Shown here: piece after piece, positions 556 through 26,899 of the stretch
How positions within the stretch are numbered: position 1 is the first letter of the stretch
How the letters are laid out: each line of letters opens with the position of its first letter
Assembly (NCBI GenBank): GCA_965223085.1
Contig: OZ244981.1
Span: 577,161-641,160 of the forward strand
DNA: 64,000 bases
Source of the DNA: Gammaproteobacteria bacterium
GTDB lineage: Bacteria; Pseudomonadota; Gammaproteobacteria; Ga0077536
Direction of reading: 5' to 3'
Program-made: the position numbers and the translations under genes
The notes under the pieces: model-generated
Told to the model about the DNA's origin: nothing
Databases searched by the model: none
The model's input: the letters and a program-made list of their open reading frames with translations, nothing else

Positions 556-565
556 GACCTGCCCG

Positions 566-7900: not shown

Positions 7901-7917
7901 AACGGCAGTAACAGGAG

Positions 7918-8642: not shown

Positions 8643-8779
8643 CTTAGAAACGTCGTCAGTGCTTGTTCCGAATCTGGTTCTGTCATCATTCCAATAATGA
8701 AATGACTTTATCAATTTTTTGCTACGATGTAGCTTACGGTCGAGCAGCAGCTTCGACAGATAAAAATAGGAGGGCGAGT

Positions 8780-10027
8780 ATGTTTACGGCAACTGACGGA
8801 ATATTGATCCCAACGACTGTGACGGGATCTTGGCCACGACCCGCGTGGTTTACGCGCAGTCTTCAAGGGCGACGCTTATCCGACGTGATGACCGACATCG
8901 AGTACCGCGAGCAGTTTTTGGACGCCGTGGCGACCGTTATCAGCGATCAGGAGCAGGCTGGCCTAGACATTGTCTGCAACGGTGACTACCACCTCGATCC
9001 TAATCTCGGCGGCCTATCCTGGATCCTGTGGCCGATTGAACGCATGGCGGGCGTTGACGCGCAGGATACCTATCCGGCGGCGGAAGAATGGTCGTATCCA
9101 CCCGGCTCGGTGCTCAACGAGGTCATGGGGGGGTGGCGCTATCCGGCAGCAGTGGACAAAGTGCGCCGAGAAAGATCGTGGGAATTCGCCAAGCTGTGGC
9201 GAACGGCGCAAGCAAAAACAATGAAACCATTGAAATTCGGTACCGTGTCCGGGCAAATGACGGGGTCTTTTGTCGAGTTGCGCACGACTAAATATCCGCA
9301 GGACAAACGTGAGCTCATGTGGGATATGTGCGTCGCGATCAACGAGGAGTTGTGTGAACTCGCCACCGCGGGCTGCAAAGTGATTCAACTCGAAGACCCA
9401 CTCATACATCTCGTCAGTCCGACCAAACCCGACAAGGAGTACGTCGATTTCCTGATCGATTGTTTTAATCGTGAAGTAGAGGGCCTAGATGATGTTGAAA
9501 TCTGGATCCATACTTGCTGGGGCAATCCAAACATGCAAAGGGTGTTGGAAGACACATCGTATGCCCCGTCGTTCGAAGACTATATGGAACGCGTGAACGG
9601 GGATGTATGGACGGTCGAAATGAAGGAGCGCAACTGGGCGGATATCGAGTTATTTAAGGCGTATAAAGGCAAAAAATGGCCGAAGAAGATCGCCGTCGGC
9701 GTTATTAGTCACCGTTACCTGCAAGTTGAAACGCCGCAAGAAGTCGCTGCCGATATTCGTAACGCGCTGAAATACATTGATCCTGAGCAGTTGGTCCTTT
9801 CAACCGATTGTGGCTTCGGACGTCAAGGGTGTAATCGCATGATTGCTTTCCACAAATCGGTGTCCATGGTACAGGGTGCAAACATTGTTCGACAGGAACT
9901 CGGCGGCGAAGCAAGCATGGTCAGGGCCGCTGATCCGAACTTGCAAGTCGATAATATTTATCGCGAAACCCGTGATCGCGTGCTGATTACTGACGCCGGA
10001 GTCGGTGCTAGCCGTGGCGACGGATGA
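8780..10027 (+). CDS. MetE-like Zn-dependent methyltransferase (cobalamin-independent methionine synthase family, stand-alone catalytic barrel), paralog 1
   Basis: MFTATDGILIPTTVTGSWPRPAWF.., IQLEDPLI (Glu ligand), WIHTCWGN (His-x-Cys) and STDCGFGRQG (Cys) are the MetE C-terminal-domain Zn-site signatures. An AGGAGG RBS lies upstream. It is about 45% identical to the paralogs at 22507 and 48017. Confidence 0.8.
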   Translation: MFTATDGILIPTTVTGSWPRPAWFTRSLQGRRLSDVMTDIEYREQFLDAVATVISDQEQAGLDIVCNGDYHLDPNLGGLSWILWPIERMAGVDAQDTYPAAEEWSYPPGSVLNEVMGGWRYPAAVDKVRRERSWEFAKLWRTAQAKTMKPLKFGTVSGQMTGSFVELRTTKYPQDKRELMWDMCVAINEELCELATAGCKVIQLEDPLIHLVSPTKPDKEYVDFLIDCFNREVEGLDDVEIWIHTCWGNPNMQRVLEDTSYAPSFEDYMERVNGDVWTVEMKERNWADIELFKAYKGKKWPKKIAVGVISHRYLQVETPQEVAADIRNALKYIDPEQLVLSTDCGFGRQGCNRMIAFHKSVSMVQGANIVRQELGGEASMVRAADPNLQVDNIYRETRDRVLITDAGVGASRGDG

Positions 10028-10180: not shown

Positions 10181-11395
10181 ATGCCAAACGCAAGCTCTGA
10201 TAGCGCCGTCTACATAGTCGGCACCGCTGATACGAAGCGTGCCGAGCTAGAATTTCTGCGCGAGCGTATCGCGGCTAGCGGCGTGACAACCCGGATCGTC
10301 GATGTTGGCATTCTTAGCGACGGACGCGACGTCGATTTTGGGCCGACCGCGGTTGCCGCTCACCATGCTCGAGGCGCTGCGATCCTAGATACCGATGATC
10401 GCGGTGGAGCGATTGCGGCCATGGGCGAAGCGCTCATCGGGTTTCTCACTTCGAGGCCTGATCTCGCAGGTGTGATCGGGATCGGCGGCTCGGGCGGTAC
10501 GGCAGCTATTACACCCGCGATGCAGGCACTCCCCATCGGCACACCGAAAGTCATGGTTTCTACCGTGGCGTCGGGTGATGTCACCGCATACGTTGGCCCT
10601 ACCGACATTTGCATGATCTACTCGATTACAGATCTCGCCGGACTGAACCGAATTTCCACGACAGTGCTCAACAACGCGGCGGCCGCGATCTCAGGCATGG
10701 TCCGTGCGCCGCGTGCTGCCATGGTGTCGCTGCCGCCGGCGGTAGGACTTTCGATGTTCGGCGTTACCACACCGCTTGTCATGACCCTCACAGAGCGATT
10801 AAAACCCGCGTTTGAACCTTTGGTATTTCACGCTACCGGTATCGGCGGTAGGTCGATGGAACGTTTGGCGTTAGAACGCGAAGTGATCGCCCTACTCGAT
10901 ATGACGACCACGGAAATCGCAGATTATTTAGTCGGCGGTGTAATGAGCGCGGGTCCGAGTCGCCTCGATGCCGTAATCGAGACCAAGCTACCCTACATCG
11001 GGTCGTGCGGCGCCTTAGACATGGTTAATTTTGGGGCCCGAGAAACGGTGCCGGAAAAATTCAACGATCGTCAATTCTACATTCACAATCCCTTCGTGAC
11101 CTTAATGCGTACGACGCGCGACGAAAACCGGCAAATCGGGGAATGGATCGGCAACAAGCTCAATTGTTGCGAGGGTCCGGTGCGTTTTTTAATCCCGAGC
11201 AAGGGCGTATCTGCGATCGACATCGAAGATGGACCCTTTCGTGATCCCCAAGCGGATGCAGCCCTGTTCGAGGCGTTGCAATCAACCATCACCGAAACTG
11301 CGAAACGCCAACTCGTGTCTATCGACGCTCATATCAACGATACCGTGTTTGCTGACGCGGTTGAGTCTTTGTTTAAGGAAGTGGTTGCCGTCTAG
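10181..11395 (+). CDS. UPF0261 / Tm-1-like ATP-binding domain protein (COG5441)
   Basis: 404 aa, [22 protein letters not shown]...[16 protein letters not shown]... The size and motifs are typical of the Tm-1-like N-terminal family, which is normally found next to a PEP-hydrolase-like partner, as here. Confidence 0.75.
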
Positions 11396-11406: not shown

Positions 11407-12231
11407 ATGATTTCTCGTCAACAAGTCCTCAGCAAATTTAACACCATGATCGAACAAGGTATACCCATCATAGGTGGCGGTGCCGGCACAGGTTTATCGG
11501 CAAAATGCGAAGAAGCAGGGGGCATCGATCTGATTGTGATCTATAACTCCGGCCGCTATCGAATGGCTGGGCGCGGTTCACTCGCCGGTTTGCTGGCCTA
11601 CGGCAATGCGAACGAGATCGTCGTGGAGATGGCGCAGGAAGTCGTGCCCGTAGTCAAACACACTCCTGTGCTTGCCGGTGTTAACGGCACCGATCCGTTC
11701 ATTGATCACACGCGCTTCCTACAAAAGCTGCAAACTTTGGGTTTTGCGGGCGTGCAGAATTTTCCCACGGTCGGTTTAATCGACGGACAGTTTCGCCAAA
11801 ATCTGGAAGAGACAGGCATGGGGTATGCGCTCGAAGTTGACATGATCGGCGCGGCACACCGCCTCGATCTACTAACAACACCTTATGTCTTTGACGTCGA
11901 CGATGCCCGCGCTATGACGGCTGCCGGTGCAGATATCTTAGTCGCGCATATGGGTCTAACGACCGGCGGCGCGATCGGGGCTGATACGGCGCGTAGCTTG
12001 GATGATTGCGTTGGCAAAATCGACGCCATCGCGCAAGCGGCGAGAGCGGTACGCCCTGAGGTGATCATGCTGTGTCACGGCGGCCCTATTTCATCGCCCG
12101 AAGATGCGAAATTCATACTCCAGCACTGCCGCGAAATTAATGGCTTTTATGGTGCGAGCAGCATGGAACGTCTACCAACTGAAACAGCGATCACCGGGGT
12201 CACGCAAGCATTCAAAAACATTACCGTCTAG
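11407..12231 (+). CDS. phosphoenolpyruvate-hydrolase-like 'TIM-barrel signal transduction' protein (COG5564), partner of UPF0261
   Basis: 274 aa, ..[43 protein letters not shown].. Start is 12 nt after the Tm-1-like stop. The last 57 nt of the gene lie inside direct repeat 1. Confidence 0.75.
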
Positions 12232-12255
12232 GTCGGAGGTTCGTTCTAACCGAAC
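12175..12255. repeat. direct repeat 1 (about 81 bp), covering the 3' end plus 24 nt downstream of the PEP-hydrolase-like gene; left boundary of the island
   Basis: ccaactgaaacagCgatcaccggggtcAcgcaagcAttcaaaaacattaccgtctaggtcGgaggttcgttctaaccgaac matches 24786..24866 with 4 mismatches. It contains the stop codon and a small hairpin (gttcg-ttctaac-cgaac). Confidence 0.85.
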
Positions 12256-12416
12256 TAACCGTGGAATTCGTCGAATTTAATATACGAACAATCTTTTTAG
12301 GGGGTAACCCACTCGACTCCAACGATAGAGGTGGCCCCGGAAAATCGGACAGCGGTATAAGTGGAATCTGGGCCTGATATGAGCCATGTTATTGGCCTCC
12401 CTATCAGGAGGCAATC

Positions 12417-12719
12417 ATGCCGAGAAGACCCCGCCGAAATCACACGCCGGTATTCAAATCGAAAGTCGCGTTGGCAGCGATCCAGGGTGACAAAACGGTT
12501 GCTGAGCTCGCCCGGCAGTTCGACGTTCACCCGAACCAGATCACGCAATGGAAGAACCAGCTGCTCGAGCGAGCGGCCGATGCGTTCGACGGTAACGGCC
12601 CGAAGGAGCCGGCGGTGGACATCAAGGCGCTGCACGCCAAGGTCGGCGAACTTGCCTTGGAGAACGATTTTTTGGCAAGCGCGCTCAGCACGGCGGGCCT
12701 GCTGAGCGCAAAAAGATGA
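12417..12719 (+). CDS. IS3-family transposase OrfA (HTH)
   Basis: MPRRPRRNHTPVFKSKVALAAIQGDKTVAELARQFDVHPNQITQWKNQLLE.. is an IS3 OrfA. It ends at the AAAAAG frameshift window. Confidence 0.8.
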   Translation: MPRRPRRNHTPVFKSKVALAAIQGDKTVAELARQFDVHPNQITQWKNQLLERAADAFDGNGPKEPAVDIKALHAKVGELALENDFLASALSTAGLLSAKR

Positions 12720-13543
12720 TCGACCGGACTCACCCGTTGCCGATTACTCGCCAGGCGAAGGCGTTGAGGATGGCACGTTCTACGGTGTATGCCATGCCGC
12801 GACCAATCTCGGATCGCGACCTCGATCTGATGAAGCGCATCGATCGGTTGCATCTTCAGATGCCGTACGCCGGCTCTCGCATGCTGCGCGATCTATTGAA
12901 CCAGGACGGCATCAAGGTCGGTCGTAAGCACGTGGCGACGTTGATGAAGCGGATGGCCATCGAGGCGCTGTAGCGCAAGCCGAAAACCACGAAGAAGCAC
13001 CCGGAGCACCGCGTGTACCCGTACTTGTTGCGTCGCCAGGCAATTACTCGCCCGGGACGGGTCTACGCCATGGACATCACCTACATCCCAATGGCTCGCG
13101 GCTTCGGGTACCTGGCGGCCGTGCTGGACTGGTACTCGCGCAAGGTCCTGTCCTGGCGGGTCTCGCTCACCATGGACGTGCACTTCTGCCTCGAGGCTAT
13201 GGAGGAAGCCATTGCCCGCTACGGAGCACCTGAGATCGTCAACACCGATCAGGGTTCCCAGTTCACCTCACAGGCCTTCACCGGCCTGCTCAAGGAGCAG
13301 AACATCCAGATCAGCATGGACGGCAAAGGCGCCTGGCGTGACAATGTCTTTGTCGAGCGGCTGCGGCGATCCGTAAAGTACGAAGAGGTTTACCTGCATG
13401 CTTACGACACGGTCTCTGAGGCACGTGCCGGTATCGGCAGGTACTTTGATGTGTACAATCGAAGAAGGCCGCACTCCAGCTTGAAAAGAAAAACGCCGGA
13501 CCAAGTCTATTACTCATCGCAGCCGCTGACCCTGGCTGCTTAA
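12716..13543 (+). pseudogene. IS3-family transposase OrfB (DDE integrase core) interrupted by an in-frame amber codon at 12971-12973
   Basis: ORFs 12716..12973 and 13013..13543 are in the same frame, separated by a TAG (..MAIEAL*RKPKTTKKHPEHRVYPYLL..). The second part carries the DDE core (..VNTDQGSQFTS..). Confidence 0.7.
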
Positions 13544-13616
13544 ACGACAGGCTCGGAGCCACTTATAGAACCGGGTTTAGTTGTCCAAACAAATGGGACC
13601 ACCTCTGTTGCCGAGC

Positions 13617-14034
13617 AGCTGCGACTGAGAGGTAACGAGGACGTTGTAGCCGAGGCGCACGGCAGCATGGCCGATGGCCTGAGCGATGTGGCTTTTGCCG
13701 GTGCCGCAGGGCCCGGCGATGAGGACAGAGCGACGTTTTCCTCGATGAAGCGTCCGGTGATGAGTCCGTGGACCAGGGCTGAGTTGATGTTTGGATTGAA
13801 GCTGAAGTCGAACTGGTCGAGTGTTTTGTGCGATCGGAACGAAGCGCGCCGCAGTCGCGTAGCGACGCGTTTCTGGTCGCGCCGTGCGACCTCGTCGGCG
13901 ATAAGCAGAGCGAGGAACTCAGGGTAAGGCATTTTCTTGTCGATGGCCTGTTTGTTGCGGGATTCGAGGGAGTCGAGGATCCCGGACAGCCGCAGTTGTT
14001 TGAGCATGGGGGCGCGTTCTGGCATGGGGTTCAT
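13617..14034 (-). pseudogene. istB: IS21-family helper gene istB: frameshifted near 13735 and 3'-truncated by the IS3 insertion
   Basis: MLKQLRLSGILDSLESRNKQAI...LDQFDFSFNPNINSALVHGLITGRFIEEN, then the Walker A region (RSVLIAGPCGTGKSHIAQAIGHAAVRLGYNVLVTSQ) is readable only in a shifted frame. The ORF ends abruptly at the IS3 right end. Confidence 0.7.
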
Positions 14035-14048
14035 GGTGTATTCTCCTT

Positions 14049-15559
14049 TCAGTGTTTAAGTAAGTCACGGGTGTCTCGGCAGAAGCGTGCGTGGCCGGTA
14101 TAGGTGTCAGCCAGGGCATCAAAGGCCTGCGCTGCCGAGGGGTGTTGGTCGAGGTCTTTGTCGAGGATGGTCTTGACGGTGCGGTAGCGGGGATTGTCGT
14201 AGTCGAGCGCACGTTGGCAGGCGGCTTCGAGGCGCTCGGCGCCGTATTTTTTCTTTAATCCGACGACGCCTGGGGCGGCACGGAGATTATCCAGTAGGCG
14301 GTCGGCGAACAGTTTCTGGATGAGTTGATGACAGGCGGAGCCGATACGCTCGGCCTGAGCGAGGTACCATTGGGGGTCGCGCATTTTCCAGGCCAAGGCC
14401 TCAGGCGGCATATGGTCATCGGCGGTGGCGCGGGAGCCGGATCGTGTGAGGCGTGGGTGCACGGCGATCAGTTCATGGTCGCGGTAGATGCGCACCGTTA
14501 CCGCGGTGGCTTTCAGCCACAGGGATTGGCCGAGTAGCCGGAAGGGCACGGAGTAGCGGCATTTCTGGAACTGGACGTGGGCATCGCGATGGACTTTGAC
14601 CTTGGCCCAGACAGCGAGCTCGGGTGGCACGGCGGGTAAGGGCTGTAGCAGAGGCTGCTCGATGGCGAAGCGCACCAGCGGTTTCTCCCGGGTGGAACCA
14701 TGGAGTCGGTTGCCGGCCTCGCCCAAGACCCAGTCCTGTAGTTGCCGGTTGGCCTCACCCAGGTCACGGAAGTATCGCAGCGGCAGGAAGTTACGTTTGA
14801 CGTACTTGACGCCGGATTCGACCCGGCCTTTCTTTTGCGGGTCGCGCGGGGCGCAGGCGGTGATTTTGAAGCCGTACGCTTCAGCACATTCGGCATAGGC
14901 ACGCTGGACCTCGGGGTCGCGGATACAGGCGCGGGTGATGGCGCACTTGGCGTTGTCGATGATCACCCGACGCGTCCCGCCACCGAACCATTCGAAGGCG
15001 TGGCGGTGGCAGGCGAGCCAGGTGTCTACTTTCTGGTCGAGGACGATCTCGGCGTACTGATGGCGGCTCCAGCACAAAGTCATCAGGAAGAACCAGGTCT
15101 TGCGCGCCTCCCCGGTGATCGGGTCGACCAAAGTGGGGCCGGCGCCGAAGTCGACCTGTGCGGCCTCGCCCGGCGCGAAGTCCAGGTGCACTGTGGCCTT
15201 CGGTGCTTCGAGCGCCGGGGCACGCACAAACCGATTGACCGACGCATAGCTGCCGCGAAACTGGTGGAGTCGCACCAGCGCCTGATGGATGGTCTTACTC
15301 TGGATCCCCTGCTCGGCCCAGCCGGTGACCAGTTCGCGGAAAGGTTCCACACACGATACAGGACCGGGCCGTTCCGGGTGAGTCAGGGCCTTGGCCAGCA
15401 CCGCGTCATCCGGCATCGCTGTGTCCGGGTTCAGCCAGTCGCGGGCGCCAGCCGCCGGAGTTCCTGGGCCTTGCGCCGACCGATTAACCCGGCCCTGGCC
15501 AAATCTCGATCGGAATCCCCTTGGCGCATGCGCACCAGAACGTGACGAAATTCGAACAT
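14049..15559 (-). pseudogene. istA: IS21-family transposase istA with an N-terminal frameshift near 15440
   Basis: MFEFRHVLVRMRQGDSDRDLARAGLIGRRKAQELRRLA (ATG 15559, GGAGG RBS) is typical of an IS21/IS408-type IstA N-terminus, but it shifts frame before ..DWLNPDTAMPDDAVLAKAL... The remaining 455 aa contain the DDE domain (..HLDFAPGEAAQVDFG..). Confidence 0.7.
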
Positions 15560-15666
15560 CTCGAACCTCCTGTTTGCCATCGATACCCCTTCGACCAAAA
15601 GGTGCGAGGGTATCCGCGGTTACAGAAAGTCCGAACCTGAAATCAGCTCATCGGCTCCGTCGCCGT

Positions 15667-15727
15667 GGCGCCATTAACCTGTAATTACACTGGCTCCATT
15701 AACCTGCAACCCGATTGGCTCCATAGG
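15667..15727. repeat. IS21 terminal multiple direct repeats (predicted IstA binding sites) marking the IS21 end
   Basis: ggcgccattaacctg / ggctccattaacctg / ggctccatagg lie in tandem just outside the istA start. Multi-copy terminal repeats are characteristic of the IS21 family. Confidence 0.55.
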
Positions 15728-15874
15728 CGTGCAAATCGACATAGGGTCGACACTTGTGGTAAGTCTATTTGGTTCAGACAACATACACAATATACGATGG
15801 TATGCTAGACACTAGTCACACAATGCTTTCACATTGTCCTTCGGGATTAACCTACGCAGAAAAGCCCCCAGCTG

Positions 15875-16105
15875 GTGTTCCCCTCCTTATTAAAGAAAAC
15901 GCCAACAATCCCGACAACCCCTTATGTGTCCGGCATGACTGTTGAAACAGCTGTTGCGATCGCTGGCGGTTATTCCGAGCGGGCAAGCAAGCGTTCGTTC
16001 CGGCTATCGCGGCGCGTTAACGGCTTCGACGAGACGATAGAAGCCCCAGCTGACTATATGGTGCGGCGCGGCGACACAGTCGTCGCCCACGAGCGTTTCC
16101 TATAG
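15875..16105 (+). pseudogene. C-terminal fragment of a polysaccharide-export (Wza-like) periplasmic protein
   Basis: ..PYVSGMTVETAVAIAGGYSERASKRSFRLSRRVNGFDETIEAPADYMVRRGDTVVAHERFL resembles the C-terminal repeat of polysaccharide export proteins. There is no N-terminal part because the IS21 end lies upstream. Confidence 0.35.
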
Positions 16106-16145
16106 TCTGGCAAAACATTGCCCGTCCAACATCAGAGCGCGATCT

Positions 16146-17270
16146 GTGCCCTTCTCATTTCGCATTTTGCATTGCTTAAGAGCACCGGTCGGTGGATTGT
16201 TTCGCCATGTCCTGGACCTTGCAATGGAGCAAGCCAGCGCTGGTCATAACGTCGGCATCATGACAGATGCGATATCATCCGACGTATTAACACAGTCTAA
16301 ATTAAAGGCCATCGAGCCACACTTAACACTTGGACTTCATCTGGTTCCCATGAGCAGACGACCAGGTGTTGGCGATATTGCTGCAACACGTCAGCTCGTT
16401 CGGTTGGCGCGTATGAAAGATGCCAACATTGTCCATGGCCATGGTGCAAAGGGCGGCGCATATTCCCGTCTCGCTGCCTGGTTTCTGAAAGCACGCGGCC
16501 ATCCGCTAGCAAGTTTCTACACCCCACACGGCGGCTCGCTGCATTTTGACCCAAAGACAACAGAGGGACAAATCTATCTGAACCTCGAAAAGATTCTCGC
16601 GCGCTTCACAGACGGGCTCATTTTCGAAAGCAAATTTGCCCGCGACGTTTATGAAGACCACATTGGCTTCAGTGGGCGTTCGGTGAAACTCATCCCCAAT
16701 GGACTTCGCCCTGCCGACTTTGGCAGCCATGTCCCAGATCCGGACGCTGCAGACTTTCTGTTCGTCGGCGAGCTGCGCCAGCTCAAGGGCGTCGACGTCA
16801 TGTTGCGCGCTCTGGCCACGTTGCAATCAGAGACGCGCCCGGCAACCGCCTATTTTGTTGGTGGGGGGCCAGATCGACAAATGTTTGAGACCCTCGCACA
16901 AGATCTTAACCTCACTCAGGTGACGCATTTCCCAGGTCCCAAGCCGGCACTGGAAGCATTTCCAAAAGGCCACTGCTTGGTTGTGCCCTCACGCGCCGAG
17001 AGTTTTCCCTACATCGTTCTAGAGGCGGGTGCGCAGGCGATGCCTATTATTGCCACCGAGGTAGGCGGCATTCCCGAGATGGCACACGGTACACCACTCA
17101 AATTGATTGCACCCGACGACGTCCCCTGCCTTGGAACAGAAATGAAGCGGTTTCTCAACCAGCCAGGAGAATTTCGAGCTGCCGCGCAGGCGTTTAAAGC
17201 AAAGGTCGAAACGACCTATACAGTTTCTGAAATGACGCAAAACGTTCTCAATTTTTACGGGGACGCCTGA
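16146..17270 (+). CDS. GT4-family glycosyltransferase (exopolysaccharide-type)
   Basis: 374 aa with the C-terminal GT-B EX7E-like region (..VVPSRAESFPYIVLEAGAQAMPIIATEVGGIPE..). Confidence 0.8.
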   Translation: MPFSFRILHCLRAPVGGLFRHVLDLAMEQASAGHNVGIMTDAISSDVLTQSKLKAIEPHLTLGLHLVPMSRRPGVGDIAATRQLVRLARMKDANIVHGHGAKGGAYSRLAAWFLKARGHPLASFYTPHGGSLHFDPKTTEGQIYLNLEKILARFTDGLIFESKFARDVYEDHIGFSGRSVKLIPNGLRPADFGSHVPDPDAADFLFVGELRQLKGVDVMLRALATLQSETRPATAYFVGGGPDRQMFETLAQDLNLTQVTHFPGPKPALEAFPKGHCLVVPSRAESFPYIVLEAGAQAMPIIATEVGGIPEMAHGTPLKLIAPDDVPCLGTEMKRFLNQPGEFRAAAQAFKAKVETTYTVSEMTQNVLNFYGDA

Positions 17271-17282
17271 CCACCTGATCAA

Positions 17283-17470
17283 GAAGTCAGGGCATACCCA
17301 CAGGACAGCCCACACGGGTGCGGTCACGCTGATCCAGCGCTTTGGCAGTGCGCTGAACCTGAATATCCATTTCCACATGCTGTTCCTTGATGGGGTGTAC
17401 GTCGACCGCCCCGATGGGGCTGCCCGATTCCGCTGGGTCAAGGCGCCCACCACTGAGGAACTCACGCAAC
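17283..17470 (+). pseudogene. internal fragment of an IS91/ISCR-family (Y2, rolling-circle) transposase
   Basis: GHTHRTAHTGAVTLIQRFGSALNLNIHFHMLFLDGVYVDRPDGAARFRWVKAPTTEELTQL contains the conserved HFHMLFLDGVY block of IS91 transposases. Nothing IS91-like precedes or follows it. Confidence 0.5.
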
Positions 17471-18159
17471 TAAATCGTGTCCGAATGTCATTGCCTGCAT
17501 CGAAGACCCGGTGGTTCGATGGACTGCCGCACACGATTGTGACGGTACAAGGTCTTAGGTGCGCACCTGCGATCGGGCACTTCACCGCCGAGCGCCGTGT
17601 CGGTGATCAGATCACTGCGCTCTTTGATCGCATGCCGCCTGGGACGATTCTCGTCTTAACCTTGACGGTGCGCCCGCAAGATGTGACACGACAACACATC
17701 GCAGCCGTCAAACGCGCGACGGTGGGTGATGCCGCCGAAGCGACGCTCACCCGCGAGCAAGCGAGCGCCGTTGAGCGCGAGATGGCGGCCGGCAACAAAC
17801 TCTATCCGCTCAGTATCGCGTGTTATCTCCGCAGTCAAGACTTAGCGGAGCTACAAGCGCATGTGAATCAATTGCACGCACTTTTATTACCGAGTGGGTT
17901 GCAACCGATTGGGCGAGAGGCGGATCTGTTGATCCTCGGTCGTTACCTCCGGCATCTACCGATGAACGATGAGGTATTGCTCGAGTGGGTGGCTGGTCGC
18001 GGCTCGTCTTTCCACACCATACCGCGAACCTCTTACCGCTCTACGGGCGATCACGTGGGACCGGCCACCCTGGGATGGTGTTTTCAACCGCGGCGCGGAG
18101 CCTTTGATCTTCGATCCGTTGCATCCCGATGATCGCAAGAAAAACGCGCATCTCTTGGT

Positions 18160-19262
18160 CTTATTGAGACTAACAAAATAAATGAACTATGTATGATTTC
18201 GATGATCGGATCTTTCAGATTGTACACTGAAGAGACCGATGGCGAAATCGGAGAAACAGAAAGCGAAAGAGAAACGTCGTCTGCGAGCCGGCCGTTTATT
18301 GCTCAAGGGCGTGCTGCAAGTCGAGGTCGCTGAACGCATCGGGGTTGCCAAGTCGAGCGTCAGCGGCTGGGCCAAACGATTGTCGGAAGGCGGACTGGAT
18401 GCGCTGCGTAGCGATGCGATATTGGGGCGTCCATCGGGCATGGACGACGAGAGGAACTCGTTCGCGCCCTGAAGCAAGGGGCAATGGCGCACGGGTTTCC
18501 GACAGAGCTATGGACGTTACCGCGGGTGCGACGCCTGATCGAGTCAATGTTTGGCTTGCAGTATTCGGAGCCCCATGTGTGGCGGATCCTGCGCAGCCTG
18601 GGTTTCAGTCCGCAATGACCGAGCAAGCGGGCGCTGGAACGTGACGAGGATGCGATCCGAAATGGGAAGCAGAAACGATGGCCAGCGTTAAAAAAAACGC
18701 CGTAAAACAGGGGCGAACTATCGTTTTCGTGGATGAGTCCGGTTTGAGCGAGCGGCCGACGCGCACGAGGACATGGGCGCCGAAGGGCCCCACGCCGGTG
18801 CTGCAATATCACTTCAATTGGCATCAATTGTCGGTCATGGCGGGTATTACCTGGCGCCGATTTTACTTTCGTCTGTTTCCCGGCAGCGTCAAAGCGCCCG
18901 AGGTGATGAAATTTCTCAAAGCGCTGTACCGGCAAATGCGCCGCCCGTTGTTGAACATCTGGGATGGTCTGCCCGCCCACCGCTCATGCCTCGTGCGCGA
19001 ATACATCGAATCGAAGAACGGTGCGATTCAGTTGGAACGCTTGCCCGCTTACGCACCAGAGCTCAATCCGGTGGAATATATCTGGGCTTATGCGAAACAA
19101 CATGAAGTCGCCCATCTGTGTCCGGATGATTTCGCAGAGTTGACCGACGTTGCTCGAAGCCGCCTTCGTTCGATGCAACGCCAACCTGCCTTGGTTGAGG
19201 CATTTTGGAAACAGGCAGAACTCTCCTTATGATTGTTCATCATTTATGTAAGTCTCAATAAG
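18160..19262 (+). mobile_element. IS630-family element (about 1.1 kb) with terminal inverted repeats cttattgagac / gtctcaataag; the transposase is inactivated
   Basis: The transposase is spread over three frames: an HTH part (18239..18472, MAKSEKQKAKEKRRLRAGRLLLKGVLQVEVAERIGV..), a middle part with an in-frame TGA (..LGFSPQ*PSKRALERDE..), and the DDE_3 part (18678..19232, ..TIVFVDESGLSER..). An A8 run sits at the junction at 18688-18695. Confidence 0.7.
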
Positions 19263-19360
19263 GTGTGAAATGAGACGGCGTCAAGCCATTCCCTGTTACA
19301 GCTTACTCGCAAATTCCCCACCACGAGCAAGGTCGTTTGACGACCCGCATCATTGCATCG

Positions 19361-20054
19361 CTACGTCGGTTGGCGAGAGCACGCGACGCTTACAGCTCGC
19401 GCAACGACGATGGGAATGATTCGCGCGCGATACCAGGCCGAGGCATGCTTGTCAGTGGCAGGATCGATCAGGGCCGCGCTGCCCGCGAGTACTTCTCGGC
19501 AATGTTCCGGAGTAGGATCTTCACCCACTTCGGACGCGTCCATTTCAACCACAACGGGCTTGGTAGTCGCGCGACCAATCGCGACCCGAACAGACTCGTC
19601 ACTGTAGACCGCCGCCGCCGTGGCAATAGCCGGAGCGATCGCAAACGTCGACCTGGGCGTCCAGTGCGAGCAAGGTGAACGCCAGATCGCCGCGATAGAC
19701 GACGTTGCCGCCCACCGTGGCAAGGTTGCGCGAGGCTGGAGCACCCACCGACCTGGCCGCAACTCGCAGCGGCTCGAGTGCTGTGATCCGTTCAAATTCG
19801 GCGATCCGCAACATAGCCCCGATACGAACGCCGCCGTCATCGATACTTACCGCGTCGAGTCCGGCGCAAGCTAGATCGGCCACATCGGTGTGCGCTGAGG
19901 CGCCTTGGAACAGGGTCGGCGTCGTCACCGTCCCACCGCCGATTAATAGGACTCTCGGGGTCGGCTCGCTGGTAAGCGCCCAGGCTTCGGCGCTGCTGGT
20001 GGGAAAATGGTAGCTAATGCTCATCAACGGTGCTCGGTGTTCTCGCGGTAACAA
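19361..20054 (-). pseudogene. CoxM-like FAD-binding subunit of a xanthine-dehydrogenase-family enzyme, frameshifted; paralog of 49320..50117
   Basis: N-terminal frame: MSISYHFPTSSAEAWALTSEPTPRVLLIGGGTVTTPTLFQGASAHTDVADL... C-terminal frame: ..VRVAIGRATTKPVVVEMDASEVGEDPTPEHCREVLAGSAALIDPATDKHASAWYRARIIPIVVARAV. Both align to the intact CoxM at 49320 but sit in different frames. Confidence 0.7.
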
Positions 20055-20213
20055 TAATCCAAGACCCGGGGCGAGGTCTAATCAGCCACTATCAACTAAA
20101 TTTCTCCGCGCCGAGTACTTTGCGAACGATGTTGACCTCGAACTGCGGCGGCATCGGATCGACTAGCGCGCGATTCGGTCACCCCGCGGCGATCACCACT
20201 CCCCCCGTTAGGA

Positions 20214-22463
20214 TTAAAAGCGATACGATAGCGTAACGCCATAACGACGCTCCGTCGCCTGGTAGCCAACATCAGGCAGGTTTGTCGTCTGAGCATTGAA
20301 CCAATTTGACCAATATTGGGTGTTACCTAGGTTCTTCGCCCAAACCGTAAGCTGCCAGTTTTCGTTCTCAACAGCGACATTGGCATTGATTAGATGTACG
20401 TCTTCTTCAATGTCGGTATTAAATACGTCCCAATAATTGTCGCCGCGTACGGCATAATCGATATGGAGCGATGCTTCCCATCCGGTATTAGTGATCGGCC
20501 ACCTGTATTCGCCCGTTACACTGGCCGACCAATGACTGAAATTTCCAAGCTTATTTCCGATGAAGAAGTTATCGCTTATGGGGGTGGCTAGTCCGGATGC
20601 GGCGCTGATAGCCGCGGCATTGCCGCCAACGTTGATCGGGAACAGTGCAGCGTTCTCAAACGCCTCAATCTCAGAATCCATCCAACCGAGCGCGGCGCCG
20701 ACCGTAAGTCGATCGCTTACAGCCCAAGTTCCGTCGAGCTCAATACCCCAGACGCTGGACTCGGGGATATTGTGGAGGATCTGCGCCGCCTGCACCGAGT
20801 CGAACACGAAATCCTGTTTGTCATTTATGTCTTCGTAAAACACGGCTGCGTTAAATAACATCGCGCCGCCAGCGTATCGTCCCTTATGACCAAGCTCGTA
20901 ACTCCACAAAGTCTCCTCCTTGAAGGTTGTCGGGAAGGCAGATCTAGGTGTGTTGAAACCGCCGCTACGAAATCCTCGGGAGGCAGTTAAGTAAAACATG
21001 TGATCGCCGGTGGCGTTATAGCTGATGGAAGCTTTTGGCTGAATATCGTCAAATATCTTGTCGAAAAAGTTTGTCGTCGGATCGGGATCATCGTAGTCAA
21101 ACTGATCACGATCTTCGCGGTCATAACGCAAACCGAGGCTCACCGTCCACTTGTCGGTAATGTCGAAGTCGAGGTTGCCAAACACGGCGATCGCGTCAAT
21201 ATTACGTTTCAACCCAACTGGGGAGATGATAAAAGTCTCATCGGCCAGATCACCGTCCCCGTCGAAGTCGATGAAAACCGGCAGCGTGTCACGCCGATCG
21301 ATTGAGATGTAATACAGACCAACCATCCATCGCAAACGCTCTTCCGTGTTCGAGATCAGTTTAGCTTCTTCCGACCAAGACTTAGCGGTGTAGGTTTGCT
21401 CGTTACCAATAAATTCACCGGCAACAAAATCAAGATCACCAGGGCCGTCACCGCCCACGCCTTCGCCGCGCCGACCATAGCGCTCATAGGTATTGTTGTA
21501 GGCTGTTACAGACGAGAGTTTCGCCCAACCAAAATCATACTCCAGTTTCAAGGATGTGTCCCAAATAGTACCGAACGCAACAGATATAGGATCCGAAGTC
21601 GGACGCCCGAACCCATTATTACTATTTCGAATCCGGCCCGTAAATGGTACGCCGATCGGCCGAGTTATTACGTAGTTGTAATTTCCGGCCTCGAGGTCGT
21701 CGACGCTGAAACGAAAGTCGGCATTGAAGTTTTCAGTTGGGAACCATGATAGCCTGGCGCGCAATGTTTTATTCTCTTGAAAGTCGGCTTTTTTATTAAC
21801 AGTCGCATTGTTAATCGTCCCGTCATCATCGTGATAAGTGCCAGCTAAACGATACGATAGGGTATCTTTTATCACTGGACCCGCAACTGAAAACCTGAGA
21901 TCCAATGCGTCTGCGTTCCCGTATCCAACGGTGAATTTTCCTTGATGTTCGTTCGTGGGTGCTTTGGTTGTGATATTGATAGCGCCGGCGATCGCATTGC
22001 GACCATACAGCGAGCCCTGCGGTCCTTTGAGTATCTCAATTTGTTCGATATCGAATAACTCCTGGCGGACCTGGCTGGCATTACTAATCTGCACGCCATC
22101 GACGACTATGGAGATCGCCGGGTCCGTATTCCTTGTTTGTGTAATACCGCGCACGGAGATAAAGGTGGACGTTGGGCTTAGATCGTTTCTCGAGCCGATA
22201 TTGGGATAAAGCATGCCGATATCCTTAACCGTCGTGATACCGGCGCGTTCGATCTGATCTGATGTGATCACTACGATGCTGTCTGGAACATCGGCCAAGG
22301 ACTCGCTCCGCTTACGCGCTGTAACTACGATCTCCTCTAGTGCCCCTTGCGCTGCCGCGACACCTATGAGTTGAAACCCCGGCGGGTATTGCGTTGATAG
22401 TACAAGCGCCATCGCAATTGTTGGCACAACATATACTAGTCGATTTACTGATTTACGATTCAT
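20214..22463 (-). CDS. TonB-dependent outer-membrane receptor
   Basis: 749 aa with a signal peptide, an N-terminal plug (..EEIVVTARKRSESLADVPDSIVVITSDQIERAGI..), and a beta-barrel ending in the canonical ..RRYGVTLSYRF. Confidence 0.85.
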   Translation of the reverse strand: MNRKSVNRLVYVVPTIAMALVLSTQYPPGFQLIGVAAAQGALEEIVVTARKRSESLADVPDSIVVITSDQIERAGITTVKDIGMLYPNIGSRNDLSPTSTFISVRGITQTRNTDPAISIVVDGVQISNASQVRQELFDIEQIEILKGPQGSLYGRNAIAGAINITTKAPTNEHQGKFTVGYGNADALDLRFSVAGPVIKDTLSYRLAGTYHDDDGTINNATVNKKADFQENKTLRARLSWFPTENFNADFRFSVDDLEAGNYNYVITRPIGVPFTGRIRNSNNGFGRPTSDPISVAFGTIWDTSLKLEYDFGWAKLSSVTAYNNTYERYGRRGEGVGGDGPGDLDFVAGEFIGNEQTYTAKSWSEEAKLISNTEERLRWMVGLYYISIDRRDTLPVFIDFDGDGDLADETFIISPVGLKRNIDAIAVFGNLDFDITDKWTVSLGLRYDREDRDQFDYDDPDPTTNFFDKIFDDIQPKASISYNATGDHMFYLTASRGFRSGGFNTPRSAFPTTFKEETLWSYELGHKGRYAGGAMLFNAAVFYEDINDKQDFVFDSVQAAQILHNIPESSVWGIELDGTWAVSDRLTVGAALGWMDSEIEAFENAALFPINVGGNAAAISAASGLATPISDNFFIGNKLGNFSHWSASVTGEYRWPITNTGWEASLHIDYAVRGDNYWDVFNTDIEEDVHLINANVAVENENWQLTVWAKNLGNTQYWSNWFNAQTTNLPDVGYQATERRYGVTLSYRF

Positions 22464-22506
22464 CTTGAAACCCCAACAGCATGACGGATCACCAAATTAA
22501 GGAACT

Positions 22507-23679
22507 TCAAATTAAGGCGAACCTTGGATCGGCCGCGAGGCTGGGTATTTCCTCTAACCCCAACTCTTTGCGAACGATATTGACCCCTAGTCGCAGCGAC
22601 ACCATTTTGAAAAACGCGTGCATTCGACTCATGCCTTGTCGACCGAAGCCGCAATCAGAGCTGATGATCAGTCGCTCTGGACCTATAAGTGTTGCCGCAC
22701 GACGGACTAGGTTTGCAACCTGTTCAGGGCGTTCGATCTCGAGGCTACGGTGATGAATGGCGCCGATCGCCACCTTCTTGTCTTTACCAATCGCCTTTGC
22801 AATTGCCTCGAGGTTTTCTCCCTCATCACTGGCCGTCTCGAATGTAATGACGTCGACATCCAACGCATTTAAATATGACAAACCCGGTGTGTAGTCCTGC
22901 ACCACTTCAACGCGTTGGGCGAGCGGATTGCCCCAACAGGTGTGCGCCCAAATCTCGGTCTTGTCCCGCAAACCGTCAACTTCACGGTTAAATACCTCTA
23001 CATATTCGGCTGCGCGTCTCGCGCCATCGTCCATTGACGCAACGTACTGTATGAGTGGCTCCTCTAATTGAATAACCGGTGCGCCAGCATCGGCGAGCCG
23101 GCGGTATTCCTTATTCATGGAATCTGCGATTGCGTTCGTGACTTCCTGCGGTTGTTTGTAATAACGATTAACGACCACTGCATCCAATAGCTGTGCGCAG
23201 CAACTACCTAGTTTTACCGGTTGAGCGCTCATGCTCTGAGCGATCTTCCAAAGCTCCGTGTATTCGAGATCACCCGGCGTGATCTCACCGGTTATCGAGG
23301 CGGGCAGCCGACATTCTTGAACGCGTTGCAAGATATCGCCGCGTTGTTGTTCGCGCGGTGAGGACCACCCGGGAACCTGCAAGGCGGGTTTTTCCATGCC
23401 ACCCATACGCTCGAACATGTACGCAAACCAAGCGCGGCCACCAACATCCGCGTCGAAACGCGAGTCGCCGTCGACGAAGATTTCGATTCCGGCGATCGAC
23501 TGATCGCAGAAGTGCGCTGCTAGTGTGTCGCAATACTGTTCGCGAAAACGTAGATCTGTCATGGCCAAAGAGAAGGGGCGGCCATTGAGATTCTCTGTAA
23601 ACCAACTGGGACGTGGCAGCGATCCGGTAAGCGTGGTCGCTAACGGTCGATCTTTGGTCGCTTTGAACATGAAAACCAA
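22507..23679 (-). CDS. MetE-like Zn-dependent methyltransferase, paralog 2 (about 90% identical to 48017..49189)
   Basis: MVFMFKATKDRPLATTLTGSLPRPSWF..IQLEEPLIQ..WAHTCWGNP..SSDCGFGRQG. A 390-aa intact ORF. Confidence 0.8.
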   Translation of the reverse strand: MVFMFKATKDRPLATTLTGSLPRPSWFTENLNGRPFSLAMTDLRFREQYCDTLAAHFCDQSIAGIEIFVDGDSRFDADVGGRAWFAYMFERMGGMEKPALQVPGWSSPREQQRGDILQRVQECRLPASITGEITPGDLEYTELWKIAQSMSAQPVKLGSCCAQLLDAVVVNRYYKQPQEVTNAIADSMNKEYRRLADAGAPVIQLEEPLIQYVASMDDGARRAAEYVEVFNREVDGLRDKTEIWAHTCWGNPLAQRVEVVQDYTPGLSYLNALDVDVITFETASDEGENLEAIAKAIGKDKKVAIGAIHHRSLEIERPEQVANLVRRAATLIGPERLIISSDCGFGRQGMSRMHAFFKMVSLRLGVNIVRKELGLEEIPSLAADPRFALI

Positions 23680-24031
23680 CCTGGTTCGGCAGTGCCCTAG
23701 AGGCCAGCCGGGTCATTGGCGATTTGAATAGATTTAACGATATAGCGCGATTCCACAATGTTGGGCCATATGGTGGCTTATCCCGTAATCTGATTTGGTG
23801 CTACGAACTACGATGACACGAAATACCCTTGGCAGACTGAAGTTTGCGAGTTAGCTTAAGCTCATGCGCGCGACTTCGTGCGGCCGTGGCAGCGTCGTGA
23901 GACGGACGGGTGATTGTTAGACTGTCAGATAAATCAGCAGAGTACGCAACATTTTCACTGTTGTTGAATTCGAACACTCCACAGTACATGGTGGTTCTAG
24001 CCGACGATAAACGACACTTGCGGAAACCCTT

Positions 24032-24100
24032 ATGAAGACAGCGATCAAGAGCGCGACCATCGTGCCTATGGATGAAAACATCGGCGATCTCGTCGAGCTC
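24032..24100 (+). pseudogene. 5' end (about 23 codons) of an amidohydrolase paralog, with its conserved leader, truncated by an IS256 fragment
   Basis: MKTAIKSATIVPMDENIGDLVE parallels MKTVIKSASIVSMDEGIGDLASGDILIEG of the intact amidohydrolase at 55261. The upstream 46-nt leader is 41/46 identical to 55148..55193. Confidence 0.55.
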
Positions 24101-24447
24101 ATCTCCGTGCCGCACAGCGCTTCGACAACTCTCTTCACCCGACGGGTCGACACCCCTTGAACGTACATCTCTGCTATAGCCAACAGTAACGCGCGTTCCG
24201 AGCGTAGACCACGCTCCAGACTTTGCGGGTAAAATTCGCCGTCGCGGCTCTGGGGCACCATCAGTGCCAACGTACTGAGCCGCGTCTTTATCGATTTGTC
24301 TTTGTAACCATTGGCATAGCCCGTACGCGCCGCCACCATCGCCGAGTTCAGCAAAACCGTCACCGCTTCTGCCAGTCCATCAAAGCCATGCGTCCTTAGC
24401 AGTTCCACTGCATCGACAATCGTTTTATTCTCACCATGCTGAGCCAT
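24100..24447 (-). pseudogene. N-terminal roughly 115 aa of an IS256-family (mutator-type) transposase, truncated
   Basis: MAQHGENKTIVDAVELLRTHGFDGLAEAVTVLLNSAMVAARTGYANGYKDKSIKTRLSTLALMVPQSRDGEFYPQSLERGLRSERALLLAIAEMYVQGVSTRRVKRVVEALCG is IS256-like. It ends within amidohydrolase-derived sequence. Confidence 0.6.
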
Positions 24448-24785
24448 TTCGTGTTTCCTCTTTGTCCGCAATTCGCCAATCGCTTTCAAAAGGATAACCG
24501 GATGGCTCGGCGCTTCCGAACCGACAACAATTTACAGAAGAAACGTTACACCACCCAAAATCAAAAGGCATGAGAGATACAGAATTATCCACTCTTCTTG
24601 GGGAGGCATACTTCCATGAGGGAAAATACCAAAACGCTATTGCAGCTCTCACAGCCGGTATCAATCTCTTTGTCGAAGATTCGCGATTTAATATGTCGGG
24701 CGAAAGTTTTGGACCTCCGCGAGCTCCGGCCATTTACCACGGCGTTAGATTGCATATCCGATTTGGGTGGCTGACCGGGAGTCAG

Positions 24786-24866
24786 CCAACTGAAACAGTG
24801 ATCACCGGGGTCGCGCAAGCGTTCAAAAACATTACCGTCTAGGTCAGAGGTTCGTTCTAACCGAAC
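24786..24866. repeat. direct repeat 2 (partial copy of the PEP-hydrolase-like gene 3' end); right boundary of the island
   Basis: 77/81 identical to 12175..12255. Only the last 16 codons upstream ([17 protein letters not shown]) resemble the gene, so this is the partial duplicate. Confidence 0.85.
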
Positions 24867-24946: not shown

Positions 24947-26500
24947 CTACCGCGCTGCTTTAACCCGTTCGTCACCGTCACGCTCGTGCGCTGGCGCATT
25001 TTCGTACACGAACTCAAGACCATCGAGATCAATTGCTGGGATCGCGTCCTTCTCCGTCCAGTAGTCTTGGGTATGCTGCCATTCCGGCTTGTCTCCGCGT
25101 TTGGGAAGCAAGTGCATGCTACGTAGCATATAACCGGGATTGAAGTCTTCCGTGTCGAGCCATGACAGTAGTGGCATGTCCTGGTCTTCAGGTCGCAATG
25201 CCACCGATACTTTTGTCGCACCTTTCTTTTGCATATGTTTTAGTAAACGACAGACGAAGTCTGCTAGGAGATCGACGCGCAGTGTCCAGCTCGCTCGAAA
25301 ATAACCAAAAACCCATAAGAGATTTGGCACACCAGTGAACATCATGCCGCGATAGGTCACGGAATTCGCAAAATCGAGCGCTTCGCCATCGACGCTAAAA
25401 TCGATGTTGCCGAGAACACTCAAATTGAAGCCGGTCGCGGTAACGATAATATCGGCCTCGAGTTCCTGACCGGATTTCAGACGAATACCCGTCTCGGTAA
25501 AACGATCGATTTCGTCAGTGACTACGCTCGCCTTGCCCGCGGTGATGCCTTTAAAAAGATCGCCGTCTGGCACTACAGCGATACGCTGACGCCAAGGCCG
25601 ATACGTCGGCGTGAAGTGCGTATCGACATCGTAGTCTGGACCAAGATAGGCGCGTACACCGGCAAGAAGTTCTTCCTTCACCACCTCGGGTTCTTCCACC
25701 GAACGGCGCGTGAATTCTCTTTGCTCCATTAAGATCTGTCGACGCACGATCTCGTGGATCCATTCCTCCTTGATGTCGAGTTTGCGCAGCTCGTCAGCCA
25801 TATTGTTCTGGTTAAATCCCGGCAGAAAATACGTTGGTGAACGTTGCAGCACTGTGACGTGCTCACAGTCTGCCGCGATAGCCGGAACGACGGTAGCGGT
25901 AGTTGCGCCAGAACCGATTACGATCAGTCTCTTGTTCGCGTAGTCAAGATCCTCGGGCCAAGTCTGAGGGTGAATGACCTGTCCCTTGAAATCGTCCATT
26001 CCTTCCCATTCCGGCGTGTAACCCTTTTCGTGGTGATAATATCCCTGACACATCCACAAAAAATTGGCCGTGAACTGCAGCGTTTCATCGTTATCGGTAC
26101 GCACCGCATCGATCGTCCAGAGGTTATCGGTACTCGACCAACTCGCCGAGACTATTTTATGGCGATACCGAATGTGTTGATCGAGATCGTTCTCCTCAAT
26201 CACTTCGCCCATGTACTTAAGGATCTCCTCGGCCGATGCGATGGGGGCACTGGTCCAAGGTTTGAAACGGTAGCCAAAGGTATACAGATCGCTATCGGAG
26301 CGGATGCCGGGGTAGCGATGCATGAGCCAGGTGCCACCGAAACTCTCCAGTCCTTCCAATACGACGAAGCTTTTCTCGGGGCATTGTGTCGCTAGATGAT
26401 AAGCGCTGCCGACGCCGGAAATACCGGCCCCCACAATGAGCACGTCAAAATGCTCACCAGCTCGTGATTTAGGTATCGTGGCTACGCCGGAAACGCTCAT
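24947..26500 (-). CDS. flavin-containing / Baeyer-Villiger-type monooxygenase (class B flavoprotein)
   Basis: GAGISGVGSAY FAD-binding Rossmann motif, the FMO-identifying motif FKGQVIHPQTW (FxGxxxHxxxW), and a second Rossmann motif VIGSGATTATVV. Start taken at the second ATG (MSVSG..) on RBS spacing. Confidence 0.8.
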   Translation of the reverse strand: MSVSGVATIPKSRAGEHFDVLIVGAGISGVGSAYHLATQCPEKSFVVLEGLESFGGTWLMHRYPGIRSDSDLYTFGYRFKPWTSAPIASAEEILKYMGEVIEENDLDQHIRYRHKIVSASWSSTDNLWTIDAVRTDNDETLQFTANFLWMCQGYYHHEKGYTPEWEGMDDFKGQVIHPQTWPEDLDYANKRLIVIGSGATTATVVPAIAADCEHVTVLQRSPTYFLPGFNQNNMADELRKLDIKEEWIHEIVRRQILMEQREFTRRSVEEPEVVKEELLAGVRAYLGPDYDVDTHFTPTYRPWRQRIAVVPDGDLFKGITAGKASVVTDEIDRFTETGIRLKSGQELEADIIVTATGFNLSVLGNIDFSVDGEALDFANSVTYRGMMFTGVPNLLWVFGYFRASWTLRVDLLADFVCRLLKHMQKKGATKVSVALRPEDQDMPLLSWLDTEDFNPGYMLRSMHLLPKRGDKPEWQHTQDYWTEKDAIPAIDLDGLEFVYENAPAHERDGDERVKAAR

Positions 26501-26899
26501 CGGTATCATTCCTCGATAATAAAACTGAAATCAGTCGGTCAAACCTATATATTTTATATGATCTAGATTAATCATCGATAGCGATTGGTTGGCACAGTGA
26601 GCCGCTAATACTAGCCCAAGCATCTAGATTTACTGTGAGCCAGAATCATGTGCGGCGCGAGTATAAAGCGCTGCGCGGCAAGACGTGAAACTACAATCGG
26701 TAAGCTTATGAGTTGTTGGATTATCCAATAGTTATAGGAGATTAATGGCAAGATTCATGAAAACCAATATATCGCCAAATCGTAAACATCTTGTAGAAAA
26801 TTGGCTGCACATTCGGCCACTACATCAAAGGGCTTCGAGCAGTGACCCACTCGAAGCCCCCGATTGTGGGTTTGTGCTACCCTCTCCTCGGCGTCGGAT

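Follow-up and report, generated by a model that had tools for sequence, protein, structure and literature searches.

Our analyses centered on a stretch of DNA of 64,000 nucleotides from a Gammaproteobacteria bacterium (contig OZ244981.1 of assembly GCA_965223085.1, positions 577,161 to 641,160 of the forward strand; referred to here as the window, with all positions counted from its first letter), in which the 3' end of a PEP-hydrolase-like gene is duplicated as an 81-nt direct repeat that bounds an interval of about 12.6 kb. We infer that site-specific integration of a mobile element into the end of this gene, followed by extensive decay, is the most economical account of the repeat pair, and we would put the probability of that reading at roughly 50%. 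An initial annotation of the window had proposed site-specific integration as well; the repeat at the gene end and the preserved gene support that proposal in part, while the absence of a recombinase and the flank-like character of the right half of the interval do not.

Positions 12175–12255 and 24786–24866, both read on the forward strand, form a direct repeat that aligns without gaps with 77 of 81 nucleotides identical, as returned by both alignment and a repeat finder, and the pair was recovered with E=1e-30 in a self-BLAST of the window, thereby reproducing the coordinates and the identity first reported for it. A third copy of the 81-mer was not found by an ungapped scan of both strands of the window, in which the best other place matched at no more than 38 of 81 positions. 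These values establish that the repeat pair exists, that it is the only one of its kind in the window and that it far exceeds what chance would give. The edges of the repeat are sharp on both sides, since MAFFT alignments taking in flanks of 75 nt in each direction gave no similarity outside of the 81 nt, the sole possible extension being a doubtful 3/5 match immediately to the left. In addition, local alignment identified no continuation of the flank of either copy elsewhere in the window. Copy 1, which has the position of a left attachment site (attL-like), consists of the last 57 nt of the gene, that is 18 codons and the stop codon TAG (12175–12231), and of 24 nt downstream (12232–12255). 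Copy 2, which is attR-like, has an orphan set of 18 codons, a stop codon and 24 nt, so that it keeps more of the gene than the final 16 codons with which it had initially been credited. A hairpin that had also been described in the repeat is not supported, since shuffled sequences fold equally well (z = -0.06 and +0.35).

The sequences flanking the repeats bear directly on one simple alternative, which is that a local tandem duplication began at 12175 and that the downstream part of its first copy was later replaced by insertions or deletions. Regions rich in insertion sequences (IS) are often tandemly duplicated, and a duplication of this type would yield repeats that are direct and near each other, as is the case here. 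However, such an event predicts that the segment 24554–24785 recurs to the right and that the sequence from 12256 onward matches that from 24867 onward, and neither was seen in the remaining 39 kb. A tandem duplication would also need a deletion whose start coincides with the end of the repeat, and we consider it very improbable.

The PEP-hydrolase-like gene (11407–12231, forward strand, 274 residues) is intact and covers the whole of the PF09370 PEP_hydrolase profile (positions 1–267 of 267, E=1.4e-131). It is the last gene in a run formed by a MetE-like gene (8663–10027, 454 residues), a UPF0261 gene (10181–11395), in which both the N and C domains of that family were detected, and PEP_hydrolase itself. 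Preservation of the gene, which had been noted from the outset, is evident from its full PF09370 length and from the span of the repeat across the stop codon; because the stop codon is included, the gene is reconstituted at copy 1. Comparison of the two tails with the aligned C-termini of 81 homologues of the PF09370 gene revealed which of them is the constrained one. The tail of copy 1 agrees with the C-terminal pattern of the family, PTExA[LI]T..T.AFK. Copy 2 has an A to V substitution at a column conserved in 81 of 81 homologues and a T to A substitution at a column conserved in 79 of 81, and it differs further by one synonymous change and by one change after the stop codon. As these substitutions are at family-invariant A and T residues that copy 1 has kept, copy 2 is the decaying copy: to judge from its sequence, it is a genuine fragment of the gene tail that has drifted unconstrained from a near-identical, copy-1-like sequence. 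The initial description of a duplicated gene 3' end thus stands, with copy 1 fitting the family consensus and copy 2 a drifted fragment. The possibility that the gene tail itself derives from a repeated element was rejected since the tail fits the consensus of the 81 homologues. The duplication also does not belong with the older duplications in the window. Other paralog pairs in the window have nucleotide identities of 69–81%, compared to 95% for the repeat copies, and the probability of at least 77 matches in 81 positions at an identity of 81% is 2.4e-4, which indicates that the tail duplicate is younger than, or unrelated to, that old paralogy.

In the scenario that we favor, a circular integrative element, probably a conjugative one, would have entered the chromosome by recombination at the 3' end of the PEP-hydrolase-like gene. 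With it would have come a near-identical version of the final 18 codons, of the stop codon and of the 24 nt that follow, leaving the gene whole (copy 1), and the native tail would have been displaced to the far junction, where it would now be an orphan beside a flavin monooxygenase-like (FMO) gene (copy 2) that has since drifted by ~5%. Later insertions of IS21, IS3, IS91, IS630 and IS256 elements, together with IS-associated deletions, may then have removed the recombinase, most of the transfer genes and some of the cargo, with the remainder being a 12.6-kb immobile patchwork resembling a cis-mobilizable element (CIME). The attraction of integration is that one reciprocal exchange would produce two sharp edges, direct repeats 12.6 kb apart, a repeat that takes in the stop codon, and copies that were near-identical when the event occurred. 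We infer from these features that a recombinase did the joining and that the whole interval came in as one unit.

Several of those same features are left unexplained if copy 2 is instead the scrap of a second copy of the gene, recently acquired or duplicated (~95–100% identical), that once ended at 24842. Under that explanation, IS-associated deletions, such as those evident at the cut amidohydrolase gene and at the IS256 fragment of the interval, would have left only the last 57 nt of the second gene, and the 12.6 kb would be no unit at all, its right half being native chromosome and its left half an IS-driven junk insertion. Orphan fragments are indeed common in the window, where many genes and IS elements survive only in pieces (amidohydrolase, CoxM, TraC, Wza, IS256, IS110, IS30, IS3 and IS200-like). 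However, at least two independent events would be needed for the two sharp edges, and the shared right edge (12255/24866), just 24 nt past the stop codon, would be unexplained. So would the direct orientation and 12.6-kb proximity of the scrap to the resident gene and its 95% identity, as against the 69–81% of the other paralog pairs. In addition, neither the rest of a second gene nor a second UPF0261 gene was found in the window. On balance, a second gene copy is a possible but unlikely origin of copy 2.

Further support for integration comes from the content of the interval, whose mobile DNA includes five IS elements or remnants (IS3, IS21, IS91, IS630 and IS256) and a 156-residue scrap of a conjugative-transfer ATPase. 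The left 7 kb are both compositionally distinct and mobile in content, which supports the integration of an element. The ATPase scrap (17500–17967, forward strand), which the initial annotation had missed, is an internal portion of a TraC protein, representing ~156 of ~890 residues. It matches positions 214–374 of 375 of TraC_F_IV and positions 258–413 of 892 of traC_PFL_4706 (TIGR03744), the latter with 161 bits relative to a cut-off of 520, and it is 38–43% identical in amino acids to plasmid genes annotated as 'conjugative transfer ATPase'. A single open reading frame (ORF; 17377–18132) joins it to a scrap of an IS91-family (Y2_Tnp) transposase gene (17272–17471, forward strand; PF04986 positions 1–30), which is 79% identical in nucleotides to plasmid-borne IS91-family genes. 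It is evident from the TraC scrap, together with the many IS remnants, that conjugative-element DNA has been at this locus. Pfam scans found no relaxase, coupling protein or other transfer genes beyond the 156 residues of TraC, which are the sole trace of transfer machinery in the parts of the window examined.

The left junction is where the remainder of an element's recombination module might be sought. Copy 1 is followed by 71 nt (12256–12326) that have no Pfam hit in six frames and no match to the IS21 end, the right flank, plasmids or phages, and that would be a leftover of the arm of the element if integration took place. The 71 nt were considered as the missing IS21 end and rejected, as no alignment rose above shuffled controls; the resumption of homology beyond the IS elements was likewise rejected, the alignments scoring no higher than such controls. 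Next is an IS3-family element (12327–13606, forward strand; HTH_Tnp_1, HTH_21 and rve domains) with an orfA (12417–12719), a broken orfB (12716–12973 and 13013–13543) and terminal repeats GAGGTGGcCCC/GAGGTGGtCCC, to which IS ends on plasmids align from ~12322. This IS3 has no target-site duplication, the flanks ...ACGAT and GTTGC... being different. It abuts an IS21-family remnant (13607–15744, reverse strand; positions 3–103 of 238 of the IstB_IS21 profile, rve/Mu-transpos_C_2, and NF033546 transpos_IS21) whose istA (14049–15416) is intact, whose istB is truncated by IS3 at ~codon 142 and whose multi-repeat left end is at ~15670–15744, with GGCTCCATTAACCTG repeats. The absence of a target duplication and the joining of unrelated DNA by IS3 indicate that a deletion or rearrangement occurred 71 nt from copy 1. 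This IS3-linked event may sit where the integrase gene of an integrated element usually lies, and the integrase gene would presumably have been lost at the IS3/IS21 junction. The contents first listed for the interval (IS3, IS21, GT4, SLBB/Wza, IS91, IS630, IS256, TonB, MetE-like and CoxM) were largely confirmed, but IS3 is not nested in IS21, since only its right side abuts the truncated istB.

The right junction is similarly flanked by IS debris. An IS256-family element is represented by a 5' fragment of 460 nt (24092–24552, reverse strand; Transposase_mut positions 54–135 of 379), which has its transposase start at 24447 and an outer inverted repeat at ~24529–24552, and is broken at about profile position 135. 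The outer end of this fragment was placed by comparison with an intact relative, a 1308-bp IS on the Halioglobus pacificus plasmid CP019045. The left edge of copy 2 was considered as an IS256 terminus and rejected, as the terminus is at ~24552, a distance of 233 nt. The segment between the two (24554–24785, 232 nt, forward strand) has no Pfam or NCBIfam hit. It contains the beginning of an ORF (24570–24842) that continues in frame into copy 2, and residues 7–47 of this ORF gave only generic, multi-stretch matches to TPR repeats in a phmmer search of 1.84 billion proteins. That the sequence to the left of copy 2 may be read as a gene fragment, with a single TPR-like unit joined in frame, is a point in favor of copy 2 being the residue of a second gene. 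On its other side, copy 2 is convergent with the FMO gene (24947–26509, reverse strand; FMO-like and Pyr_redox domains), which is 80 nt away.

Several results weigh against integration, and we consider these together here. Pfam was run on all ORFs of at least 80 residues and, in six frames, on every unannotated gap, and the gaps held no remnant of a tyrosine or serine recombinase, integrase, resolvase or excisionase. The recombination-type hits were to DDE/IS transposases only, with no Phage_integrase or Resolvase domain among them, in agreement with the initial statement that no integrase or recombinase survives. Of the hallmarks of an integrative element, direct repeats that reconstitute a gene are present, whereas a recombinase gene or its remnant is not. 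There is also no tRNA gene in the window, no Rfam family between 11 and 26 kb and no significant motif common to both arms of the putative element, in which a single 9-mer was shared (p about 0.09).

The total absence of a recombinase remnant is in line with the origin of copy 2 from a second gene, and it also fits a Campbell-type insertion, in which RecA rather than an integrase would have joined to the chromosome a circular DNA, for example a plasmid or an excised IS-bounded segment, that carried at least 81 bp of the gene end. The structure predicted by this event is the same, with direct repeats, sharp edges and a preserved gene, and plasmid-type DNA, in the form of the TraC scrap, is present in the interval. 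The substitution pattern, from which the copies appear to have been near-identical when the event occurred, is accommodated as well. However, 81 bp is a short homology for efficient RecA recombination. It is also unexplained why a foreign circle would hold the exact segment, from -57 to +24 nt of the stop codon, that restores the gene. A layout of this kind is characteristic of attP sites evolved for the targeting of gene ends. A Campbell-type insertion therefore appears to us improbable.

A second set of results that weighs against integration concerns the composition of the interval, which is not uniform. The measures used, dinucleotide signature and GC content at third codon positions (GC3), are noisy since the segments are short. 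The left part (12256–19262) has a dinucleotide signature that differs from both flanks (delta* 64–92), whereas the right part (19263–24785) resembles them, with delta* values of 24 and 33 to the flanks compared to 33 for one flank versus the other. The GC3 of the right part is 0.55–0.57 and that of the flanking genes 0.58. In addition, the block 19382–24092 is paralogous (69–81% nucleotide identity) to a chromosomal-looking cluster at 47889–55321, whose order is MetE-like, CoxM-S-L, CoxD-E and amidohydrolase, and of which the interval has a partial, rearranged paralog 24 kb away. The MetE-like gene of the interval (22507–23679, reverse strand, 390 residues, intact; Meth_synt_2) is 88% identical in amino acids and 81% in nucleotides to its counterpart at 48017–49189, with which it is inverted. 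The CoxM-like pseudogene (19361–20054, reverse strand; FAD_binding_5, PF00941 positions 2–137 of 170), which is frameshifted and spread over two frames, has 69–72% nucleotide identity to 49319–50102. Finally, 23912–24092 matches 55147–55321 at 72% in direct orientation, at the start of a PF01979 gene (55219–56586), and its amidohydrolase paralog retains the first ~36 codons (23984–24092, forward strand) before being cut by the IS256 fragment. The intact gene for a TonB-dependent receptor (20214–22463, reverse strand, 749 residues, with plug and beta-barrel domains) lies between MetE and CoxM in the interval and is absent from the 48–55 kb cluster. In that cluster the CoxL-like large subunit occupies two adjacent ORFs, 50718–52073 (MoCoBD_1) and 52089–53093 (MoCoBD_2), so that its gene is split naturally or has been disrupted.

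As only the left half is foreign-looking, caution is needed in annotating the interval, not all of which should be labeled as horizontally acquired cargo. The segment had first been described as accessory throughout, and this description suits the left 7 kb, which are foreign-looking and mobile, and is not supported for the right 5.5 kb, which are flank-like and paralogous to the 48–55 kb region. A right half that is flank-like in composition and paralogous to a nearby cluster is also what would be expected if copy 2 is all that is left of a second gene. Moreover, the interior of the interval has at least five illegitimate junctions, so that it may not have come in as a single unit; what is left is a patchwork rather than one clean element. 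It should be considered in this context that the genes of the window fall into two composition classes, one with GC3 of ~0.55–0.60 (8.6–31 kb and 48–57 kb) and the other with ~0.64–0.72 (the rest, including 1–8000, 31000–34500 and 60600–64000). Both flanks of the interval belong to the 8.6–31 kb portion of the former class, and the whole 8–31 kb block could itself be accessory.

Comparisons with other genomes are the third source of results that count against integration. An empty site was not found in the genome, metagenome and protein collections searched, since the nearest relatives there have no more than ~80% protein identity and do not share the gene order of the locus. There were no exact matches on record to the proteins of the two flanking genes, and a scan of 185,579 species genomes returned only relatives that are at most 76% identical. 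The best non-self homologues of the PEP-hydrolase-like protein are ~76–80% identical, with UPF0261 as the only neighbor in common, and those of the FMO (80%) and the TonB receptor (53–62%) are in unrelated contexts. A duplicated gene tail was found downstream of the gene in none of 81 PEP-hydrolase loci (80 distant relatives and locus L081), for each of which up to 10 kb of downstream sequence was compared. In a survey of 130 ORFs within ~3.5 kb downstream of the gene at 78 loci, no integrase was present among the 25 of 55 matched families that were listed, which include all those with at least two members. To judge from the lack of tail duplicates and of a recurrent integrase in relatives, the PEP-hydrolase gene is neither known nor repeatedly used as a target of integration. 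The genes most often downstream of it in relatives encode Polyketide_cyc2 (SRPBCC) proteins (29 of 130 ORFs) and flotillin/Band_7 proteins (15), with cupins also being common. Neither Polyketide_cyc2 nor flotillin follows the gene in the window, and in the nearest relatives of the FMO gene (loci L083–L085) it is convergent with a Polyketide_cyc2 gene. A comparison of the repeat with known attachment sites, which had been suggested at the outset, yielded nothing in phage, plasmid, viral-contig or metagenome collections: neither the att core nor either junction, used as exact DNA patterns, occurs in the metagenome and viral contigs scanned, and the two att regions had no BLAST match to phages and only IS3-end and IS256 matches to plasmids.

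The remaining features of the left part of the interval, in order, are a C-terminal scrap of a polysaccharide-export gene (15875–16105, forward strand), which is SLBB/Wza-like although the SLBB match is weak (E=0.0011, below the Pfam cut-off), an apparently intact gene for a GT4 glycosyltransferase of 374 residues (16146–17270, forward strand; Glycos_transf_1 and Glyco_transf_4) and an IS630-family element (18164–19258, forward strand; DDE_3). The inverted ends of the last and the TA target duplication on both of its sides mark it as a simple insertion.

The whole window is IS-ridden, with debris outside of the interval too. To the left, a broken IS200/RAYT-like Y1 transposase gene, with the motifs YYH... 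and NHYHLVL recognized by eye, is at 3081–3900, in a region (3000–4500) that is strongly C- and A-skewed (GC skew -0.28). To the right are an IS3-type rve/rve_3 fragment (39428–39985, reverse strand) and an ORF resembling the N-terminus of an IS30-family HTH protein (44158–44442, reverse strand). Two identical 34-nt units stand in tandem, 2 nt apart (58792–58825 and 58828–58861), in the intergenic region after a gene for an AraC-type regulator. Another sharp direct repeat, of 54 nt, has copies at 44053–44112 and 59530–59589, 15.5 kb apart, and brackets the cytochrome/Cox cluster. It was considered as a second att pair and rejected, its copies being scraps of an IS110-family transposase gene (ORFs 59304–59561 and 59516–59773, both on the reverse strand).

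At most, the locus is one more case of a common event, in which an element bounded by repeats enters at the end of a gene and is then heavily eroded, and the mechanism, outcome and route of decay are all well known. If integration did take place, the locus would add one more protein-gene 3' end, in a UPF0261/PEP-hydrolase-like operon, to the targets of integrative elements, and it would illustrate that IS activity can wipe out an integrative element yet spare both of its junctions. Such a case would be useful for annotation and for those island-finding tools that demand an integrase. A more far-reaching proposal is that the 81-bp pair is a still-usable att site, recognized by an integrase lineage not yet described and directed at the 3' ends of PF09370 genes, with the interval being a CIME mobilizable in cis. 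We view this as unlikely, but if true, a cognate conjugative element in the population could move the catabolic genes of the TonB-receptor/MetE-like segment.

Membership of the locus in an established class of elements, either that of e14 or that of the CIMEs, is not established, although it has likenesses to both. The TraC scrap matches TraC_PFL_4706 (TIGR03744), an ATPase that we take to be that of the ICEclc/PAPI-1/pKLC102 group, and integrative and conjugative elements (ICEs) of this type usually target tRNA genes. An ICE with a TraC_PFL_4706 system would have a full-length ATPase; in contrast to such ICEs and plasmids, only ~17% of that one gene is left here, and no relaxase, coupling protein, integrase or tRNA gene was found.

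In its present state, the locus resembles a CIME. These elements, decayed ICEs or integrative and mobilizable elements (IMEs) with lengths of 1.2–13 kb, have kept their att sites and lost their recombination and transfer genes (PMC7563491), and in streptococci they occupy, for example, the 3' termini of fda, rpsI, rpmG and rplL (PMC7563491). Similarly, the interval in the window is a cargo segment between att-type direct repeats at a gene 3' end that has no integrase, relaxase or transfer genes. It is thus flanked by att-like repeats and, apart from the TraC scrap, without recombination and conjugation genes. Streptococcal CIMEs were recognized because sister strains, or a tandem arrangement, hold the ICE or IME to which they belong, whereas no cognate element or integrase is known for the repeat described here and none was found in the window. 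The host here is also Gram-negative, possibly of the Halieaceae to judge from one weak IS match, and the interior of the interval is far more IS-scrambled than that of the streptococcal elements.

The arrangement of the gene and its duplicated tail has a parallel in e14 at icd of Escherichia coli, whose insertion has left a 163-bp pseudo-icd duplicate (PMC6379469). Unlike the interval, in which no recombinase was found, e14 keeps its integrase and can excise, and the target here is a PF09370 gene with a shorter duplicated tail (57 nt of coding sequence and 24 nt). If integration took place, however, the two are alike in the features that define the repeat pair: as with e14 and phage 21 at icd, the element would have entered a protein gene at its 3' end and supplied a replacement for that end, the gene staying functional in the case of icd, and as with e14 a short pseudo-copy of the native end remains at the opposite junction, as a direct repeat that differs at a few positions (PMC6379469).

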